From the sequence record PZ445527.1: a DNA stretch of 64,000 nucleotides. One strand, 5' to 3'. The translations under genes were made by a program, and so were the position numbers. Positions 13,539 to 42,187 of this stretch are shown here, one piece after another. Position 1 is the first letter of the stretch. Every line of letters starts with the position of its first letter. The stretch comes from a phage. The notes beneath the pieces are model-generated. The model was not told the origin of the DNA and searched no databases. It saw only the letters and a list, made by a program, of their open reading frames with translations.

Positions 13539-13850
13539 TCACAGATCGGGGCGCTTATCTTCTAAACAGTCCGAGCTAATATCTTCTCCGAATCCTACGA
13601 AGCCATCAAATTCATTTGAAATATCCGTAATCATTGCTTCCATTTTCCTAATCTCCGAGGTTTTCATCCCTGCTTTACTATTCTTAAAGTGTTTGCGAGG
13701 ATTCCCGCACATCCAACAAGAACAGATACAAGGAGTAGTAGTGATAATACCTAACCGTTTAGGGCTTTCTTCATGCGGGAAGACTGTCCAATATTTCTTG
13801 CGGTTGTTCTTCACACGTTGCCGGTGATGACGTCTTAATGCTCGATCCAC
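13539..13850 (-). CDS. hypothetical basic Cys-rich protein (103 aa, GTG start)
   Basis: AGGAG plus 6 nt plus GTG. Arg/Lys-rich N-terminus with a CICSCWMC cluster. Confidence 0.5.
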   Translation of the reverse strand: MDRALRRHHRQRVKNNRKKYWTVFPHEESPKRLGIITTTPCICSCWMCGNPRKHFKNSKAGMKTSEIRKMEAMITDISNEFDGFVGFGEDISSDCLEDKRPDL

Positions 13851-13931: not shown

Positions 13932-14300
13932 TTACATCGCCTGAGTAAATGTACGACTAATAACGTCGTTCTGCTGTTCACGCGTCAGTGCGTTAAAACG
14001 CACAGCATAACCAGAAACACGAATGGTTAGCTGAGGATATTTTTCAGGATGTTTCTGAGCATCCAAAAGCTGGTCACGACTTAACACATTGACATTTAGG
14101 TGTTGACCCCCTTCAATTTGAGGGGCGACTTCCACCTTGACTTCACGAAAGGATTCGGGGTCAAAGTGAGGTGTGATACCTTCTAGATCCTCAACTAGAA
14201 CTTTTTGTTTAAGTTCACCATCTTTAGAGTATAATTGAATAATCTGATTATTATGAACAATATTAATTACGCCAGATTTAAGATTTTGATATGCTTTCAT
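13932..14300 (-). CDS. grcA: autonomous glycyl-radical cofactor, GrcA/YfiD-like (122 aa)
   Basis: The C-terminal 60 aa ([57 protein letters not shown]) is near-identical to E. coli GrcA as recalled, including the RVSGYAV glycyl-radical motif. Confidence 0.85.
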
Positions 14301-14665
14301 TAGATCTCCCTGATGTTAGAATTTGGCTCAGCTTTTTGTTAACCCAGAAGCAAGATAAAAACTGGAAGGCAGGCTTGCTTTTCTCTTAACCACTAGGCTA
14401 CTTTTGGGTGCTAGCATTCCGGTGAGATTGATGGTCTCGGTTAAGAAGAAAAACACGGGACTTCTGTTTTAACGTCGTGCTCCCGGATTGATGCGACTAC
14501 GTGATTGCTCGCGCTAAGACAATGGCTATCTAAAGTCTTAGCTTCTACATTTATACTCCTGGATAGCATGGAGTTGCAGTCTACTTCCTGCTGTCACGCC
14601 CGGTCATTTATAGAATGTGGACTCTCTTCTCAGCAAGTTCTGGCACTATGGCCTGATCTTCTGTT

Positions 14666-14740
14666 TGGTAGTTAGTAGTGGAATCGAACCAGGTTCCACG
14701 GTTTACAAGACCGTTGCATCGCCAGCAATGCTTTAAGAGC
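14666..14740 (-). tRNA. aberrant tRNA-Thr(UGU)-like gene (probable chimera or pseudogene)
   Basis: Good D arm (GCAT/ATGC), anticodon arm (ACGGT-CTTGTAA-ACCGT) and GGTTCGATTCC box. The 3' T-stem and acceptor strands do not pair with the 5' half. Confidence 0.35.
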
Positions 14741-17940: not shown

Positions 17941-18017
17941 TGGCGCGACTGATGGGATTTGAACCCACATTCCCTCCCGTGATAGGGGAGTACCATTACC
18001 AAGCCAGCCACGGTCGC
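17941..18017 (-). tRNA. tRNA-Asp-type with anticodon AUC (A34)
   Basis: Acceptor GCGACCG/CAGTCGC, CTCCC-CTATCAC-GGGAG, GTGGG-TTCAAAT-CCCAT, encoded CCA. The loop differs from the Asp CTGTCAC loop only at position 34. Confidence 0.7.
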
Positions 18018-33311: not shown

Positions 33312-36300
33312 TTATAAGGTGCAGCCACCTGAAGAACATCCTGTAGTTTCTCCAGCTCCTCCACCATTCGCAGTGTTAAAGTTAGCATAATACCAGGTTT
33401 TTATACCATACTTAACCGCAGTCATAAAGTCACGAACTACTACTGGGCCAGGGATGATTTCATTCTCGAATTTAGAGTAATCATAATACATCTGGAAACT
33501 TGATGACTGACTCAAGAATTTTTGGTAAACGGCGTTCCACTTGATCCACTCAATACGATCTACATCATAGGCCAGTTTATAGCTCATGAGAGTATCCCAA
33601 TCAGTTGCACCTGGGGCAATTGCAATTACTTTATTCACTGCACTACCCTTGATAGATACAATCTTACGAGGTGGTTCAATAGAGTTAGTAACGCCTAACA
33701 GAACAGAGGAACTTTCTCCCGGCATCTGCGCAGTCAGAACAGAGTTACGCATACCGTATTTCAGAATGTCTGCACGCAGAGATTCCCAATCCATTTCTAG
33801 ACCTACGGATACCAGCTCATCAACAGTTTTCTTATACGTGTCGATTACCAGAATTCCTTTGGATGGTTTAGTACGATTAAACCATTCACATGCACCTTGT
33901 TCTTTAGCCAGACGTACAGAGGCTTTATGTAGGAAGTAAGACAGTTTTTCAGCTTCACGATGAATCCAGTTACGTGCTTCAACGCCTTCATAAGCCAAAC
34001 CTTCCGCCGCCATTGCACCTGCTGCGTTCATCAGACCAATACCAACATTACGACGTTTCTTAGCCGTATATTCCATAGTTGGGAACGGATAATCCTGAAT
34101 TTCAATGATGGTATCAACGAATTTCAGGAGGATGTAGCAAGTTTTCTCCCACTCAGCCAGAGATTCCATGCGTCCTAGTACAACACCACCTAAGTTACAC
34201 AGAGATACTTCACCAATATCCTCTGGCTTCATTTGATCAAGCTGCTCTTTTGTCTTATACAGCTCTGTGATATGATGGAACGGGCGTGTAGGCTGAGTAA
34301 TTTCTACACAGTTACCCGCTAAAATGCCATTAAATACACCTAAGTTTAATTTAGGTTCTGTAAAGCAATAAGTATCACTAATACGACCAGTAAACTCAAC
34401 GTTAGTTACAGTTACAAAACGGGTTGCGTCTCTATTGGGGCGTGTTAGGTTTAAGAGTTTCTCTTTATCCAAAGAGAGTCCTAAATCTTTAAGTTTCCAG
34501 AAGCCACTACTCCCCACAATAAGCCTACTAGTCTCCTTGCAGTGGTATAGTTTACTAGTACCAGTACCATCTGGTAACTCGTGGTCACCTTCTTTGCGTC
34601 CTAAAATAATCTTGCTAGTAACCCCCAATTCTAGTAACAAATCCTTCACTTTACTTAGAAAATCAGGCTCTGCCGAAGCAACCACAATACTAGGAGTTGT
34701 GCCATTTTTCTGTATGCAGCCATCTGCATCTAAATATCCCTCTAACCATTTGATACGGCTATCAATAGTATACTCTGGGCCAGGTACAAAATACTTCGGC
34801 ATTAAATCAGACTTAACAATATAGCTCAGTCTACCTGTGCTGTCCAGTAATCCACTTCCCTGAATTTCTGCGTCAATTTTATCCACTAATGGTAGTTTGC
34901 CACCTTTTTCATAGAAGTACAGCTTAGGTTCTCCATGTCTTCCATAAGTTCCATCTCCAGTGAAGAAACCGTTAGTATAAGGAGATTTTAGTACCATATT
35001 TCCATGATCTACAATAGGATTACTAAATTTAGGCATTTTCATACCTACTTGCAAGTCTACTGCTCGTACCTCTTCTAGCCCCTGTTTGAAAGAGGTACGA
35101 CGATCCTCTCTGACATATTTGGGCTGGTGGTAGAACTTATGATAAAGAGTAGATTCAATAGTAGATCCATCAGAGAATGTGATTTTTATCAACTCCTGAG
35201 CTTCCCCAGTTTTAGTAGGGATAACTGTTGACCATTCTTGTCCGTTCCAAATCTCTACTTCTTTACCAACTAAATCAATAATCTCTATGTTACCATTTTT
35301 GGTTAAAATTTTTGTTTCTGGAGCTACACAAAGGTTTGTCATACGGATTGGATCAAGGAAGTTACCGTGACGATTAGATTCCCCGATGTGGTGCGCATAC
35401 ATACGTCCTGTTTCCATTCGGATACGTAGCCAAGTATCTAGGATTTCTTTTGCAGAGACTTTAGGAGCTGCTGGAACTGTTTTTCCTTCGTGGTCGATCT
35501 TTGTAAGAGATGCCACACGTTTCTCCGCTGCCACGTAGATTTCTTCAAATTTAGCCTCGTCATCACTATAAAACGCTTCATGAACTTCTGGAGCATAGAA
35601 GTATGACATTAGCGTAATATCTTCATTTTTCAGATAACGTTTTAACAAAAGATTGTTGAAGCTCAGAGAATAATCCATCTTATCAATTTTATTCTCGTCT
35701 GTAGCACGTTGTTGCTTAACCTGCATCAACTGAATGATTTCAGGGTCAAAGTATGGATAAGACACTGTAGCAGAACCACCACGAGTTTGCTGAGTATTGG
35801 CCTTTACTGAGCGATCAATGTGTCGATAATATGGCAGTTTTCCGGAATGCGGGAATGCCCCATTTCGCACCGGATCAGCAATTGATCTGCTTTCAAGATG
35901 ATACCCGATTCCCGCTCTGGCTGCAACCATTTTGAAGACGATGTGCTCGGCGGTGTCGATTGAATCCAACGTGTCAGTGGAATCCACGAGGCAGCAACTA
36001 GCAAATCCACGGTCACTAGAGCGCAGACCAACCAGTGGCGGCGTAGGAACGTTGATTTTGTGGAGCGACATTGCGTTGTAGAGGTCGATTGCATCTAGAA
36101 TTGTCCAGTTAGGTTGAGATAACATCGCCATTGCCATACCCATGTAGGCAAACTGCGGAGTTTCATAAATTTCACCAGTGGCTATGTTGCGGCGGGAATA
36201 CTTATCAAAGAACTGCTTCAGTCCACCACTAGTAAAAAGACGGTCACGATCATGGTCGATAACCTGATTCAGAGCTTCAAATTGCTCATCGGTAATCCAT

Positions 36301-36659
36301 GCACTCATGTCTTCCCATGCACCTACGCTAACCATGTGGTCATGGAAGAAGCGCAGAGAAGGTGGTTCGAAGGAATCATAAAGGCGTTTACGCATTTGCG
36401 CAAGACGTAATTCCTTTGCTGGCACATCGTATGCTGGGTTATCTTTGATAAGGCTTTCAGCAGCCTTAATTAATGCGTCCATCAGAGTGTCGGAATCTAC
36501 AACCCCTTTAGGCAGAGTTTTTTGAGCAGCCATAGTAATGGCTGACCAACTTACATCAACTGTTTTGCAACCATACTCTGCCCAACCATTGAGTTTTTCA
36601 GGAGCAAAGTCTTCTACAGTACCGTCACGTTTAATTACTTTTTCAATGCGATGGCTCAT
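33312..36659 (-). CDS. nrdA: ribonucleotide reductase class Ia alpha subunit precursor containing an intein (1115 aa; about 775 aa after splicing)
   Basis: ATP-cone (VIKRDGTVEDF), RNR barrel motifs and a C-terminal CSSGGC redox pair. Start at ATG 36659 after AAGGAAAA; the track ORF extends to 36764 across the promoter. Confidence 0.9.
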   Translation of the reverse strand: MSHRIEKVIKRDGTVEDFAPEKLNGWAEYGCKTVDVSWSAITMAAQKTLPKGVVDSDTLMDALIKAAESLIKDNPAYDVPAKELRLAQMRKRLYDSFEPPSLRFFHDHMVSVGAWEDMSAWITDEQFEALNQVIDHDRDRLFTSGGLKQFFDKYSRRNIATGEIYETPQFAYMGMAMAMLSQPNWTILDAIDLYNAMSLHKINVPTPPLVGLRSSDRGFASCCLVDSTDTLDSIDTAEHIVFKMVAARAGIGYHLESRSIADPVRNGAFPHSGKLPYYRHIDRSVKANTQQTRGGSATVSYPYFDPEIIQLMQVKQQRATDENKIDKMDYSLSFNNLLLKRYLKNEDITLMSYFYAPEVHEAFYSDDEAKFEEIYVAAEKRVASLTKIDHEGKTVPAAPKVSAKEILDTWLRIRMETGRMYAHHIGESNRHGNFLDPIRMTNLCVAPETKILTKNGNIEIIDLVGKEVEIWNGQEWSTVIPTKTGEAQELIKITFSDGSTIESTLYHKFYHQPKYVREDRRTSFKQGLEEVRAVDLQVGMKMPKFSNPIVDHGNMVLKSPYTNGFFTGDGTYGRHGEPKLYFYEKGGKLPLVDKIDAEIQGSGLLDSTGRLSYIVKSDLMPKYFVPGPEYTIDSRIKWLEGYLDADGCIQKNGTTPSIVVASAEPDFLSKVKDLLLELGVTSKIILGRKEGDHELPDGTGTSKLYHCKETSRLIVGSSGFWKLKDLGLSLDKEKLLNLTRPNRDATRFVTVTNVEFTGRISDTYCFTEPKLNLGVFNGILAGNCVEITQPTRPFHHITELYKTKEQLDQMKPEDIGEVSLCNLGGVVLGRMESLAEWEKTCYILLKFVDTIIEIQDYPFPTMEYTAKKRRNVGIGLMNAAGAMAAEGLAYEGVEARNWIHREAEKLSYFLHKASVRLAKEQGACEWFNRTKPSKGILVIDTYKKTVDELVSVGLEMDWESLRADILKYGMRNSVLTAQMPGESSSVLLGVTNSIEPPRKIVSIKGSAVNKVIAIAPGATDWDTLMSYKLAYDVDRIEWIKWNAVYQKFLSQSSSFQMYYDYSKFENEIIPGPVVVRDFMTAVKYGIKTWYYANFNTANGGGAGETTGCSSGGCTL
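34311..35330 (-). mobile_element. intein (340 aa) with a LAGLIDADG homing-endonuclease domain, inserted in the NrdA catalytic N-L-C-x-E loop
   Basis: N-terminus MTNL|CVAPETKILT, C-terminus GILAGN|CVEITQPT. Dodecapeptide motifs NGFFTGDGTYG and LEGYLDADGCIQ. Confidence 0.85.
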
Positions 36660-36697
36660 TTGGTTTTCCTTTTTATAGTTATCAGGATTTAAGGAAT

Positions 36698-36726
36698 ATT
36701 CTACATTATTATTGGTCATTAGGCAA
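36698..36726 (-). promoter_or_regulatory. sigma70 promoter of nrdA (TTGCCT-17-TAGAAT)
   Basis: Hexamers and spacer read directly, between the terminator and the nrdA RBS. Confidence 0.6.
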
Positions 36727-36742
36727 ATAAAATTTTCTGATA

Positions 36743-36774
36743 GAAAAGGCCCGAGTATTTTCATACCCAGGCCC
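36743..36774 (-). terminator. rho-independent terminator
   Basis: A 10-bp stem GGCCTGGGTA/TACTCGGGCC (two G:U pairs), loop TGAAAA, followed by TTTTCT. Confidence 0.7.
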
Positions 36775-37002: not shown

Positions 37003-37755
37003 TTACACCTTCCCCATGTCTTTAAAAATATCGTAGAATGCTTTAGACTCAGCAGAACGAACGTTATCAATTAATTCGATCATTGAGAATGGAGCATTTT
37101 CATATTTCTCATAAACTTCCATAAGAAGTGCTAGACCTGAGTCACCTTTAATGTCTTTCTGAGCTATATCCCCGCAGATAATCAAACGGCAGTCTTGTCC
37201 TACACGAGTTAGGAGACAAACCATTGCCTCAACGGAAATATTCTGAGCTTCATCGACAATTACATAGGAGTTGTTGAAAGTTCTGCCACGAGCATGTTCT
37301 ATAGCCAAAAATTTAATTTTCTGACGTTCGACATATCCCTTATAGGCATGATCACCGATGGCCCATTTCATACCATCAGCTATTGGCTCCAACCAAGGCT
37401 CTAGCTTTTCGGCTAGATCACCAGGAAGCATACCAAGAGACTTACCTAGAGGTTCATTAGGACGTACGAGAATCACTTGCTCAATATCTGAGTGAATGTC
37501 TACGAGTTCCTGAGCTGCAAGAACGGACGGAATAAAGGTTTTACCAGTACCTGGCTCACCGATACCCACAGTCACTGTGTTGTTCTTGATCATATTGATA
37601 TATGATTTTTGCTCGCGGTTTTTACCTACTAGGGATTTAGCAACTGGGTTAGCGTAATCATTAGAAAAATCAGCCTGAATTACGTTATTCTCATATTTGT
37701 TGCCACGCTTTCTTGAACCATTGCGGTTCTCTCTTTTTTGACGTGCTTTTCCCAT
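37003..37755 (-). CDS. phoH: PhoH-like ATPase (250 aa)
   Basis: Walker A GEPGTGKTF and Walker B VIVDEAQN. ATG 37755 is 8 nt after TAGGAG, whereas the GTG at 37764 abuts the RBS. Confidence 0.85.
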   Translation of the reverse strand: MGKARQKRENRNGSRKRGNKYENNVIQADFSNDYANPVAKSLVGKNREQKSYINMIKNNTVTVGIGEPGTGKTFIPSVLAAQELVDIHSDIEQVILVRPNEPLGKSLGMLPGDLAEKLEPWLEPIADGMKWAIGDHAYKGYVERQKIKFLAIEHARGRTFNNSYVIVDEAQNISVEAMVCLLTRVGQDCRLIICGDIAQKDIKGDSGLALLMEVYEKYENAPFSMIELIDNVRSAESKAFYDIFKDMGKV

Positions 37756-37830
37756 AAATAACACTCCTATAGTGTACTTCGCTTCTAACAGAGGATCAAC
37801 AAAAGATCTTGTTTATCAACTTACAAATAT

Positions 37831-38081: not shown

Positions 38082-38747
38082 ATGGTAAGAAAGAAAATAA
38101 CTACAGAAGATGTGAACTTAGCACTTGCTCCCAGAGGAATAATTATGCTAAGCACGTATATATCAGCTAAATCCAATGCTATATTTAAGTGCTCTAATGG
38201 GCATAGTTGGGAGGCTAGAGTAGATAATGTAAAAGGTGGGAGAGGTTGCCCTTATTGTGCTAGTCGTACTTTAGATCTTAAAGAGGTAAATGAATCCTTA
38301 GCTGCTCGTGGAATAAAGATGGAAGGTAAATACATCAATTCTAAGAGTAAAATTATGTTCAGCTGTGAGAATGATCATAGGTGGGAGTCTACCCTTGATA
38401 GTGTTAGAAATCATAATTCTGGTTGTCCTATATGTTTATTAGAGAAGGATAATTATCCTACTAACGTATATATTTTAGTAAGTAGTATGGGAACCAAAAT
38501 AGGGATGTCTAGCAGAACTAAAGATAGACTCAGAGATATTAAAACTTCTTCTAACATACATGATTTAAAAATATTTAAGGAATATAGCTTTTCAGATAGA
38601 TCAAAAGCTGTGCGTATTGAAAGAGAAGCCCATTTACAGTTTAAGGAATATAATTGTCAGTACAAAGATTTTGATGGTGCTACAGAATTTTTTAGTATTG
38701 AGCCAGAAGTAGTAGCAAGGTTTATTGAGGAAATAATTAATGAATAA
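38082..38747 (+). CDS. T5orf172 (GIY-YIG-related) domain protein with two N-terminal zinc ribbons (221 aa)
   Basis: Duplicated C..H...C..C modules (CSNGHSWE...CPYC, CENDHRWE...CPIC), then VYILVSSMGTKIGMS...RLRDI...GATEFF. Confidence 0.7.
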   Translation: MVRKKITTEDVNLALAPRGIIMLSTYISAKSNAIFKCSNGHSWEARVDNVKGGRGCPYCASRTLDLKEVNESLAARGIKMEGKYINSKSKIMFSCENDHRWESTLDSVRNHNSGCPICLLEKDNYPTNVYILVSSMGTKIGMSSRTKDRLRDIKTSSNIHDLKIFKEYSFSDRSKAVRIEREAHLQFKEYNCQYKDFDGATEFFSIEPEVVARFIEEIINE

Positions 38748-40587
38748 AGATGAATTGATTAGAAACTGCAAAGAAATTATTGAGGGTTCTGCTGATGAAG
38801 AGCTTCTCTTTAATAATGCGAATAAACCCTCTGAGCGTTTCCCTACACAAAGGGATATGCTTGCAGGGGAATTGAGTAAATATCTGATTCTAGAAGAAAT
38901 GCCAATTCAGATTCGAAATGCTCATATGATTGGAGATATTCATTTCCATGATGCTGACTATGCTGCATTAGGCATGACTAACTGTTGCCTAGTAGCCCTG
39001 GAAGATATGTTGAAAAATGGTATGAAAGTTGGTAATGCTGAAATTAGTACACCAAATTCTATTACTACTGCGGCGGCTATTACTGCTCAGATTATCACTC
39101 AGGTTAGCTCCCATCAGTATGGTGGTACTTCTGTAGATCGCCTTGATGAAGTATTAGCCCCTTATGTTCGTAAGTCCTATGATAAAAATCATGCGTTTGC
39201 AAAACGTTGGACTAAGGATGAAGCTAAAGCATCTGTAATGGCTACGGAGATGACTGAAAAAGAAGTCTATGACGCTTGCCAGGGTTTAGAATATGAAATC
39301 AATACCATGTTCAACTCTAACGGTCAGAGTCCATTTATTACCTTTGGTTTTGGTCTAGGAACTTCTTGGGAAGCACGTCTAGTACAGAAAGCAATACTGA
39401 AAGTACGCATGGATGGTTTAGGTATCAATAAACGTACAGCTATCTTCCCGAAACTGGTATTTGTACTTCGTGATGGCGTAAATATGAAACCAGGGGATGT
39501 TAATTATGACATCAAGAAGTTAGCTATGAAATGTACTGCTGAACGTATGTATCCAGATTATATCAGCTATGATAAGGTTGTGGAAGTTACTGGAGACTAT
39601 AAAGTTTCTATGGGCTGCCGTTCATTCCTAGCTGCTGCAGAAGATGGTGAAACTGCCGGTCGTAATAACTTAGGTGTTGTTTCTGTAAACTTGCCTAGAA
39701 TTGCTATCGAAGCTGAAGGAAATATTGACCTATTCTTTGATTTGCTTGAGCTACGTGTAGATACAGCATTAAAAGCGTTGGAGTGGAGAGTTGATCGCTT
39801 AAAATACATTCAAGCTAAAGCTGCACCCATCCTCTATATGTCAGGAGCCTTTGGATTACGCTTAGGGCCTGATGAATATGTATTCGATCATTTCTATAAC
39901 CGTGCTTCTGTATCTCTAGGGTATATTGGTTGCCATGAAATGCTACAGTTCATGTTTGGCAAAGATGTAGACACAATGTCCGAGACCTGCATCAAGTTTG
40001 TTCAGCGTGTATTGCAGTACATGCGGGATAGAGTCGATCAGAAGAAGGAAGAAACTAAGTTAGGTTATAGCCTGTATGCTACACCATCAGAGTCCCTATG
40101 TGATCGCTTTTGTCGTCTAGACCGTGAATATTTCCCGGAGCATGAAGATATTCTGTCCAAAGGATACTACACTAACTCTCACCACCTTGATGTGGAACGT
40201 AAAGTTGCCCCTAACGTGAAATTTGATTATGAATCTAACTTTACTCCGATTGCTTCTGGTGGGTGTATCTCTTATGTAGAACTACCAGATATGAAACGAT
40301 TCCCGGATGCACTGGAATGGGTTATTAATTATGCTGCTAGTAAGGTTCATTACTTCGGTATTAATACTCCAGTGGATTCCTGTGGTAAATGTGGATTCTT
40401 AGGTGAAACAGTAGCATCCGAAGATGGATTCAAGTGCCCTATCTGTGGTAATCATGACCCTGAAACTCTTGAAGTAACTCGTCGAGTTTGTGGGTATCTT
40501 GGAAATCCAGGTGCTCGTCCGTTTAACCCAGGAAAACAACATGAGGTTATGGGCAGGGTGAAACATCAGGATATTCGAGCTAAATAA
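38740..40587 (+). CDS. nrdD: anaerobic ribonucleoside-triphosphate reductase (class III, 615 aa)
   Basis: C-terminal Zn site CGKCG...CPICG and glycyl-radical motif RRVCGYLG. Confidence 0.9.
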   Translation: MNKDELIRNCKEIIEGSADEELLFNNANKPSERFPTQRDMLAGELSKYLILEEMPIQIRNAHMIGDIHFHDADYAALGMTNCCLVALEDMLKNGMKVGNAEISTPNSITTAAAITAQIITQVSSHQYGGTSVDRLDEVLAPYVRKSYDKNHAFAKRWTKDEAKASVMATEMTEKEVYDACQGLEYEINTMFNSNGQSPFITFGFGLGTSWEARLVQKAILKVRMDGLGINKRTAIFPKLVFVLRDGVNMKPGDVNYDIKKLAMKCTAERMYPDYISYDKVVEVTGDYKVSMGCRSFLAAAEDGETAGRNNLGVVSVNLPRIAIEAEGNIDLFFDLLELRVDTALKALEWRVDRLKYIQAKAAPILYMSGAFGLRLGPDEYVFDHFYNRASVSLGYIGCHEMLQFMFGKDVDTMSETCIKFVQRVLQYMRDRVDQKKEETKLGYSLYATPSESLCDRFCRLDREYFPEHEDILSKGYYTNSHHLDVERKVAPNVKFDYESNFTPIASGGCISYVELPDMKRFPDALEWVINYAASKVHYFGINTPVDSCGKCGFLGETVASEDGFKCPICGNHDPETLEVTRRVCGYLGNPGARPFNPGKQHEVMGRVKHQDIRAK

Positions 40588-41347: not shown

Positions 41348-42187
41348 GTGAGGAACTGTACAGTGCGTAGATTAATTATTATTAGCGGTGCAGGTTTGAG
41401 CGTTGAAAGTGGTGTACGAGCCTTCCGTACTGATACTGCTAGTGGTAAAGCATTGTGGGATGATTATGACTTAGAAGAGGTATGTAATATTCATGCCTTT
41501 CGTGGTAATTTTTATCATAAAACCCATATGTTTTACAACAAGCGTCGTGAAGAGCTAAAAACTATTGAACCCAATCTTGCGCATCTTCGTATTGGTGAGT
41601 GGTATAAACAATACCCAGGTCAAGTAGTAAACTTGACTACTAACGTCGATGACCTTATTGAGCGTGCTGGCGTTCCGCATAGTGACATTCTACATATTCA
41701 TGGGTATTTAAAAGAGGTTGTTGTAGCTGACAGCTACAATAGCAGTAATAAACGAGTTATTGATGTTGGGTATAGCTCTATTGACCCAGATGATTATAAA
41801 TGGGTTAAACCTAATGTAATCTTCTTTGGTGAGCATGCTCCAGCGTACGCAGAAATGTACAATATTTTTGATGGTATTACCAGTCAAGATATGATCGTTG
41901 TAGTTGGTTGCTCTAACCAAGTAATTAACTTCTACTGGGAATTATTCCCTGTTCTTAATTTGACTGCTGCCAAATTAATGGTAGTTAACTACTATGATAG
42001 TGCCCTAGCGACAGAGCCAGGCTATCAAGGTATGACTCGTAGTGAGATGTACCAGCTGGAAGAACGCGGTATCCCTTACTGGAGTAAAGGGGCTGTAGAT
42101 GCCTTCAGTGACCCTGATTTTATTACTCGTGTAGAAGCTCATCTAGAGGGTAGACCTTATATGCCGGGGAAACAAATATGTCCATAA
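41348..42187 (+). CDS. Sir2-family NAD-dependent deacylase / ADP-ribosyltransferase-like protein (279 aa)
   Basis: Sirtuin motifs ISGAGLSVESGVRAFR, TTNVDDL and a catalytic His in LHIHGYL. Start is GTG 41348 or GTG 41363. Confidence 0.75.
   Translation: MRNCTVRRLIIISGAGLSVESGVRAFRTDTASGKALWDDYDLEEVCNIHAFRGNFYHKTHMFYNKRREELKTIEPNLAHLRIGEWYKQYPGQVVNLTTNVDDLIERAGVPHSDILHIHGYLKEVVVADSYNSSNKRVIDVGYSSIDPDDYKWVKPNVIFFGEHAPAYAEMYNIFDGITSQDMIVVVGCSNQVINFYWELFPVLNLTAAKLMVVNYYDSALATEPGYQGMTRSEMYQLEERGIPYWSKGAVDAFSDPDFITRVEAHLEGRPYMPGKQICP

Follow-up and report, generated by a model that had tools for sequence, protein, structure and literature searches.

What does a T5-like phage gain from a small gene whose product ends in the radical domain of a fermentation enzyme of its host? 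The question is raised by an open reading frame (ORF) at positions 13932-14300 of the phage sequence record PZ445527.1, of which a stretch of 64,000 nts, hereafter the window, was analysed. A preliminary description of this locus had read the product as a phage-encoded spare part of the GrcA/YfiD kind, i.e., a stand-alone glycyl-radical protein rescuing pyruvate formate-lyase (PFL) that has been cleaved by oxygen. The ORF, its length of 122 aa and the C-terminal letters quoted there are all correct, with a single ORF on the minus strand, and the identification is backed by all the sequence and fold tests reported below as well as by a homologue in phage T4, Y06I.

The window belongs to a T5-like (Tequintavirus) genome. 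By megablast, the GrcA-like locus matched 445 T5-like (Demerecviridae) records and the first 25 kb of the window matched 569 Demerecviridae records, the best matches being Tequintavirus phages, e.g., HdH2, Kenya-K45, SHSML-45 and Shivani, while tblastn with the GrcA-like protein retrieved 1584 phage records. The gene is widely conserved: its product is 100% identical at the protein level to T5.056 of phage T5, and its length is constant across Tequintavirus and Epseptimavirus. The features of the gene, together with the ribonucleotide reductase (RNR) gene discussed further below, are as follows.

13932-14300, minus strand: GrcA-like coding sequence, 122 aa plus stop codon, the sole ORF there, with an ATG start; orthologue of T5.056
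14121-14300, minus strand: divergent N-terminal half, codons 1-60, with an MKAYQ start like that of T4 Y06I
13935-14120, minus strand: PFL-type glycyl-radical domain, codons 61-122, comprising a docking strand, a helix, the RVSGYAV loop and a C-terminal helix
14010-14012, minus strand: GGT codon of Gly97, the radical glycine predicted from the sequence and alignments
14306-14311, minus strand: Shine-Dalgarno sequence AGGGAG, 5 nts 5′ of the ATG
38740-40587, plus strand: phage nrdD, encoding a class III RNR of the formate-dependent type, 615 aa (Pfam NRDD, E 5e-172)

The context of the Shine-Dalgarno sequence, AGGAGATCTAATG, is common to T5 and HdH2. A promoter and terminator scan around the gene was uninformative, as it returned 3 promoter-like sites, where 4.2 would be expected, and not a single terminator. 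On its downstream side, the gene adjoins a homologue of T5.055 (13539-13850, minus strand), which encodes a basic protein of 103 aa with the motif PCICSCWMCGNPRK and no Pfam match.

On the upstream side, the gene of T5 and HdH2 is directly preceded by tRNA-Thr, T5.058, tRNA-Ile, T5.057 and tRNA-Met. The tRNA-Met and tRNA-Ile of this T5 order are not present in the window upstream of the GrcA-like gene, and the place of the upstream tRNAs of T5 is taken by a chimeric tRNA-like sequence (14670-14740, minus strand), in which the 5′ three-quarters of tRNA-Thr(UGU) are fused, at a junction within the T-loop, to the 3′ end of tRNA-Met. The acceptor stem of this chimera is non-complementary, its Rfam score is 24.5 bits (gathering score 29) and it was not called by ARAGORN. 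The chimera is followed by ~345 nts (within 14314-14668) that are missing from T5 and present in 257 other T5-like records. Elsewhere in the window, the tRNA-Asp at 17941-18017 (minus strand) has the anticodon AUC, compared with GUC in T5 and in MET_P1_100_107 (G34A). It also carries G8T as well as G67A, the latter giving a C-A mismatch in the acceptor stem, and this tRNA may be degenerating or recoded. A position next to tRNA genes is also found in the T4-like Aeromonas phage avDM5 (L016, 3663-4222), in which the GrcA-like gene directly follows the tRNA-Met that closes a tRNA cluster, a setting that is shared with T5.

The C-terminal half of the protein is a glycyl-radical domain of the PFL type. 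The Pfam model Gly_radical (PF01228) matches residues 62-103 with 66.5 bits against a cutoff of 22.2 (E 3.6e-18), and the top NCBIfam model is that of GrcA (TIGR04365, E 2.5e-35), followed by GrcA3, GrcA2 and then the PFL model. In a search of the PDB, E. coli YfiD/GrcA (6owr) was matched with E 1.6e-30 and residues 698-759 of E. coli PFL (1h16) with E 4.8e-27, all the remaining glycyl-radical enzymes being far weaker. The preliminary description had proposed BLASTP and HMM comparison with the C-termini of GrcA and PflB as a check, and at these values the similarity is significant and far beyond chance. PHROG 1209, a family whose function is listed as unknown, is matched from end to end (E 5.8e-48; residues 1-122 onto profile positions 1-121 of 121). 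An AlphaFold model of the protein (mean pLDDT 77) retrieved 6owr by Foldseek (E 7.7e-6; TM 0.75, target-normalised) and also matched the PFL C-terminus.

When the protein was aligned with E. coli GrcA, the C-terminus of PflB, T4 vs.6/Y06I and further GrcAs of phages and bacteria, 44 columns were found to be invariant, all of them in residues 63-119 and including the docking strand and the radical loop. Gly97 aligns with Gly102 of E. coli GrcA and with Gly734 of PflB, and the RVSGYAV loop and the docking strand before it are identical in E. coli GrcA, PflB and T4 Y06I. The context of the radical glycine, loss of which would have spoken against the preliminary description, is kept, and by alignment the radical loop is intact, with Gly97 as the predicted radical residue. 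Like GrcA, YfiD and Y06I, the product is a small stand-alone protein without the catalytic barrel of glycyl-radical enzymes, and judged by its sequence and modelled fold, it has the defining features of this kind.

Two cutoffs help to place the protein more exactly. With TIGR04365, the T5-type protein scores 121.5 bits and does not reach the equivalog cutoff of 170 bits. Because the validated T4 Y06I (151.1 bits) fails it too, E. coli GrcA scoring 234, this cutoff parts bacterial from phage members and does not separate functions. With the PFL model TIGR01255 (~750 aa), the score is 86.1 bits against a cutoff of 994, the match covering profile positions 683-744 only, i.e., the last 62 residues of the protein. 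A pyruvate formate-lyase, or formate C-acetyltransferase, is ruled out by this score and by the lack of a catalytic barrel.

These results bear directly on the names in use. The 2004 annotation of T5.056 reads 'putative acetyltransferase-related protein', via InterPro IPR001150, and the orthologues in T5-like records are named glycyl radical cofactor, pyruvate formate-lyase, 2-ketobutyrate formate-lyase, ribonucleotide reductase subunit or hypothetical protein. All of these names other than glycyl radical cofactor and hypothetical protein are misnomers, those of the PFL type because the catalytic barrel and Cys418/Cys419 are absent and the score of 86 bits stands against the 994-bit cutoff of TIGR01255. 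The value of the identification thus lies mainly in annotation, as it concerns hundreds of GenBank records, whose product should correctly be called autonomous glycyl radical cofactor (GrcA/Y06I-like). The identification is correct but already known, the kind dating from 2001 and the annotation of the T5 gene from 2004, and some relatives already carry the label 'glycyl radical cofactor'. A literature search for experimental work on the T5 protein found no paper.

T4 Y06I, the product of vs.6, and YfiD are the only two spare parts validated experimentally (PMC8683613). Both are reported, in that study and in the work of Wagner et al. (2001) as cited there, to be activated by the PFL-activating enzyme (PFL-AE) and to restore PFL cleaved by O2. 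By analogy, the T5 protein would act on PFL as they do. We consider it highly probable that it is the T5-family member of the GrcA/YfiD/Y06I spare parts, which, once activated by PflA, rescues the PFL of the host and sustains the supply of ATP and formate. In the proposed mechanism, the protein would be produced from the tRNA/early region at an early stage of infection, and the host PFL-activating enzyme PflA would install the radical on Gly97. The trigger would be host PflB that has been cleaved by oxygen at Gly734 or is radical-less. The C-terminal domain of the phage protein would then slot into the active site of PFL, substituting for the damaged domain, and the radical would be handed to Cys419, restoring the formation of acetyl-CoA and formate from pyruvate. 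By this route, ATP (via acetyl-phosphate) and formate would stay available at a stage when the host could make no new PflB or GrcA after phage shut-off, and the formate would probably also feed the NrdD of the phage itself.

Selection on the gene was estimated from Nei-Gojobori counts between the window and seven T5-like alleles. The window and T5 differ by 17 synonymous and 0 non-synonymous changes, and with the more distant alleles (dS 0.5-0.8), dN/dS lies between 0 and 0.04 for codons 61-122 and is about 0.08-0.10 for codons 1-60. The N-terminal half reaches a dN/dS of 0.2-0.3 in pairs with Salmonella phage 5, where the higher values are due to a short segment, probably frameshifted, of this old record. 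The gene is maintained, and both halves are under strong purifying selection.

A dN/dS close to 0 is hard to reconcile with the idea that the protein is a decoy, which by mimicking the radical domain of PFL would titrate PflA or occupy PflB and so shut down or redirect pyruvate fermentation. Early proteins of phages are often inhibitors of host enzymes, and an N-terminal half unlike that of host GrcA could give the protein a different binding behaviour; binding to PflA is moreover required, as a phage activase is absent. A decoy would nevertheless have no need of an abstractable Gly, whereas all the residues that are invariant in functional GrcA/PFL domains are kept, among them the radical Gly and the PFL-docking strand, and the T4 homologue restores PFL activity (PMC8683613). 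Hence we consider a decoy to be unlikely and retain the rescue of host PFL as the preferred reading.

The preliminary description had also proposed that the gene was captured from an enterobacterial host, as its C-terminal half was said to match E. coli GrcA almost residue for residue. The similarity is real and the wording overstated, the identity being 74% over 74 aa, with 48 of the last 60 residues identical. As a recent event, the capture is not borne out. The last 60 codons are 73% identical to E. coli grcA at the nucleotide level and 80% at the protein level, the corresponding figures for the 3′ end of pflB being 74% and 80%, and in both comparisons only about 50% of the conserved residues have identical codons. 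Since E. coli grcA and pflB resemble each other to a similar degree (78% of nts and 80% of the protein identical), the T5-type gene, grcA and pflB are roughly equidistant. The GC content of the gene (0.39, with a GC3 of 0.29) is that of the window (0.387).

Origin was judged by ranking identities, along with the nucleotide and codon comparisons, because the alignable part amounts to only 60 residues, with 44 invariant columns. In this ranking, the closest C-terminal domains outside of the T5 group are those of phages, i.e., Vibrio phage D479 and the Asteriusvirus type (52/60), bacterial GrcAs having 47-51/60 residues identical to the T5 type. A phage-specific Gln in 'DAQ' is common to the T5-type, Vibrio phage D479 and Asteriusvirus-type domains. 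These comparisons give no sign of a recent capture from an enterobacterial host, and the similarity of the C-terminal protein sequence reflects functional constraint, namely the fit to the PFL active site.

The same figures weigh on a more radical version of the proposal, in which the gene would be a recently captured fragment of grcA or of the 3′ end of pflB, a passive passenger amid homing endonucleases and tRNA genes, devoid of an adaptive role. The tRNA/HNH region is indeed mosaic, with rearrangements, and T4 vs.6 shares with E. coli grcA a block of 97.8% nucleotide identity, but an identity to E. coli grcA and pflB of only 73-74%, the GC content of a phage, strong purifying selection in both halves and the same gene length in both T5-like genera make such a passenger extremely improbable. 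A spare part kept for its action on PFL remains our reading of the gene.

In the course of these comparisons, many database 'GrcA' entries were found to join a GrcA N-terminus to a PflB-type C-terminus (…NVMNREMLLDAME.PEKYPQ… or …SLTKEQQQDVITRTFTQSM), as in P0078, P0097, P0099, P0106, P0113, P0116 and P0118. These entries probably represent either assembly chimeras over the near-identical stretch of grcA and pflB or real gene conversion. In a further database protein, P0109, a motif of 10 residues is duplicated.

The N-terminal half of the phage protein, the first 60 aa of which had been described as unrelated to GrcA, calls for a more nuanced view. The description holds in pairwise comparison with E. 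coli GrcA, for which the BLASTP alignment begins at residue 51 and the N-terminal half has no pairwise similarity. An HMM of bacterial GrcA N-termini likewise misses the T5 N-terminus (E 0.13), and hhalign between the T5 N-termini and a profile of bacterial GrcA N-termini gives E 0.55. It does not hold for T4 Y06I, with which the N-terminal half aligns collinearly at ~30% identity, nor for a mixed profile of GrcA-like N-termini built from sequences of the T4-like and jumbo-phage types together with some atypical ones from bacteria, onto which the T5-type N-terminal profile aligns collinearly with a score of 26.3 (E 1.2e-5). In 200 column shuffles, the score was 8.5 +/- 2.0, or 17.4 +/- 2.3 with the MKAYQ start fixed, and none attained 26.3. 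Against a strictly phage-type profile, the match of the T5 N-terminal profile is weak (E 0.024), while that phage-type profile matches the bacterial GrcA N-termini with E 6e-5.

In the AlphaFold model, four beta-strands are predicted in residues 2-36 (mean pLDDT of 81-90 in blocks of 10 residues), and a similar run of strands is predicted in the N-terminal half of a Vibrio GrcA. A Foldseek search with the predicted N-terminal beta-domain returned no significant match. We tentatively regard the N-terminal half as a fast-evolving, selected counterpart of the N-terminal region of GrcA and not as an unrelated fusion. The 'radical cofactor' of Providencia phage PR1 (Demerecviridae; L011, 1198-1689), a protein of 163 aa scoring 130.5 bits with TIGR04365, has the same C-terminal domain preceded by an N-terminal extension that is both longer and different, and the N-terminal part is therefore a variable module within Demerecviridae.

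YfiD's N-terminal half is disordered in solution, as seen by NMR, and is needed for the binding of cleaved PFL and for efficient activation (PMC8683613). The N-terminal half of the T5 protein may similarly help to bind cleaved PFL. It is also here that a point against the spare-part reading is found, as the very half that is relevant to binding in YfiD has diverged so far from E. coli GrcA that a pairwise comparison no longer recognises it.

The presence of nrdD elsewhere in the window, to which the preliminary description had drawn a parallel, is confirmed. It is flanked by genes encoding a T5orf172/MUG113 (GIY-YIG-like) protein (38082-38747, plus strand), a PhoH-like ATPase (37003-37764, minus strand) and a Sir2-family protein (41348-42187, plus strand). 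As the window also carries nrdA with a LAGLIDADG insert, nrdB and thyA, the phage has the means to make dNTPs both in the presence and in the absence of oxygen. NrdA (33312-36764, minus strand) is the large subunit of a class I RNR, 1150 aa in length, with LAGLIDADG_3 at residues 672-758, which is probably an intein or a homing-endonuclease insertion. In two jumbo phages of the genus Asteriusvirus, Salmonella phage 7t3 (L015, 3123-5770) and Escherichia phage ph0011 (L019, 1594-4556), the gene order is nrdD-grcA-(DUF4326)-nrdG.

A tblastn search with E. coli PflA and a scan for CxxxCxxC, run on the window and on the whole genome of Kenya-K45, a close relative, revealed no PflA/NrdG-like activase. 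The sole CxxxCxxC match, in the T5.055 homologue, was rejected as an activase, as 103 aa are too few for a radical-SAM enzyme and the protein has no Pfam match. Given that the phage encodes no activase, host enzymes must activate both NrdD and the GrcA-like protein, the latter as a proposed substrate for PflA.

The co-existence of two glycyl-radical genes in one window raises the possibility that the small protein serves NrdD, as a spare part or radical carrier, or NrdG, as a substrate, instead of serving host PFL. NrdD too is cleaved by O2 at its glycyl radical, and the Asteriusvirus homologue sits between nrdD and nrdG. T5-like phages, however, are devoid of nrdG, and BLASTP of the GrcA-like protein against the window NrdD detects no similarity (E 5.1), the glycyl loop of NrdD being RRVCGYLG, next to a Zn-ribbon. 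The domain is instead 80% identical to the C-terminus of PflB, and T4 Y06I works on PFL (PMC8683613), leaving very little probability for a role on NrdD or NrdG. As a spare part for NrdD, the protein is rejected on its sequence, given the absence of similarity.

Action on PFL could nonetheless reach NrdD through formate, of which PFL is the source. In class III RNRs of the E. coli/T4 type, formate acts as the reductant (PMC4493059). A coupling of formate to NrdD is plausible in T5, by analogy with a neighbourhood that belongs to another phage genus, the two T5 genes lying 24 kb apart. It is possible, if rather doubtful, that phage GrcA-like proteins and class III RNRs form a functional pair, in which host PFL would be kept alive past host shut-off and through oxygen pulses, formate would be secured for NrdD and the N-terminal half would serve as an adaptor. 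Such a pairing agrees with the Asteriusvirus operon, nrdD-grcA-nrdG, and with the fact that T4-like and T5-like phages carry both nrdD and grcA. If it were true, the anaerobic dNTP supply for phage replication would depend on GrcA-like proteins, and the phage-specific N-terminal half would target either the damaged PFL or the activase of the host.

Cultivation of T5 is usually aerobic, a condition in which PFL is inactive. The benefit of the gene must therefore be conditional. Under the spare-part reading, T5-like phages, like T4, would carry a repair part for a fermentation enzyme of the host, i.e., an auxiliary metabolic gene directed at infections in a gut with fluctuating oxygen. What novelty is left concerns a possible coupling from PFL through formate to NrdD and the function of the divergent N-terminal half.

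Of the closest known systems, PflB has a C-terminus (residues 698-759) that aligns with the T5 protein ungapped, with 80% identity over the last 60 residues and 79% over the 62 aligned, but the T5 protein has neither the catalytic barrel nor Cys418/Cys419. E. coli GrcA/YfiD (TIGR04365, IPR011140; NMR structure 6OWR) is, like the T5 protein, small and stand-alone, and shares with it the radical Gly, the docking strand and the predicted fold, with 80% identity in the C-terminal 60 aa (74% over 74 aa by BLASTP). It differs in its N-terminal ~50 residues, which are not alignable pairwise, and in the C-terminal domain, where the T5 type has PflB-like positions (LLDA, TFTQ.M) in addition to the Gln of DAQ.

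The Asteriusvirus phages 7t3, ph0011 and K64-1 encode homologues of 120 aa that share up to 52/60 residues of the C-terminal domain and the 'DAQ' signature. Their gene lies inside the nrdD-grcA-nrdG operon, whereas that of the T5 type lies beside tRNA genes, 24 kb from nrdD. T4 Y06I is likewise phage-encoded, with ~120 aa, the MKAYQ start, a PFL-type C-terminal domain with the RVSGYAV loop and membership of PHROG 1209, and it aligns with the T5 protein by BLASTP over residues 1-122, at 53% identity over the full length. T4 Y06I has been tested experimentally, while T5.056 is known from sequence, and T4 encodes NrdG, while T5-like phages encode no activase. The two genes also differ in their relation to the host. 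The last 185 nts of T4 vs.6 (L003, 5058-5420) are 97.8% identical to E. coli grcA (L006, 2067-2450), with 97% of the codons identical in a block that ends at the stop codon, and the N-terminal half of vs.6 has no nucleotide similarity to grcA. Hence, T4 vs.6 appears to have arisen recently as a mosaic, or through gene conversion, with host grcA, in contrast to the T5 gene, which is 73-76% identical to grcA at the nucleotide level and fully phage-like in composition.
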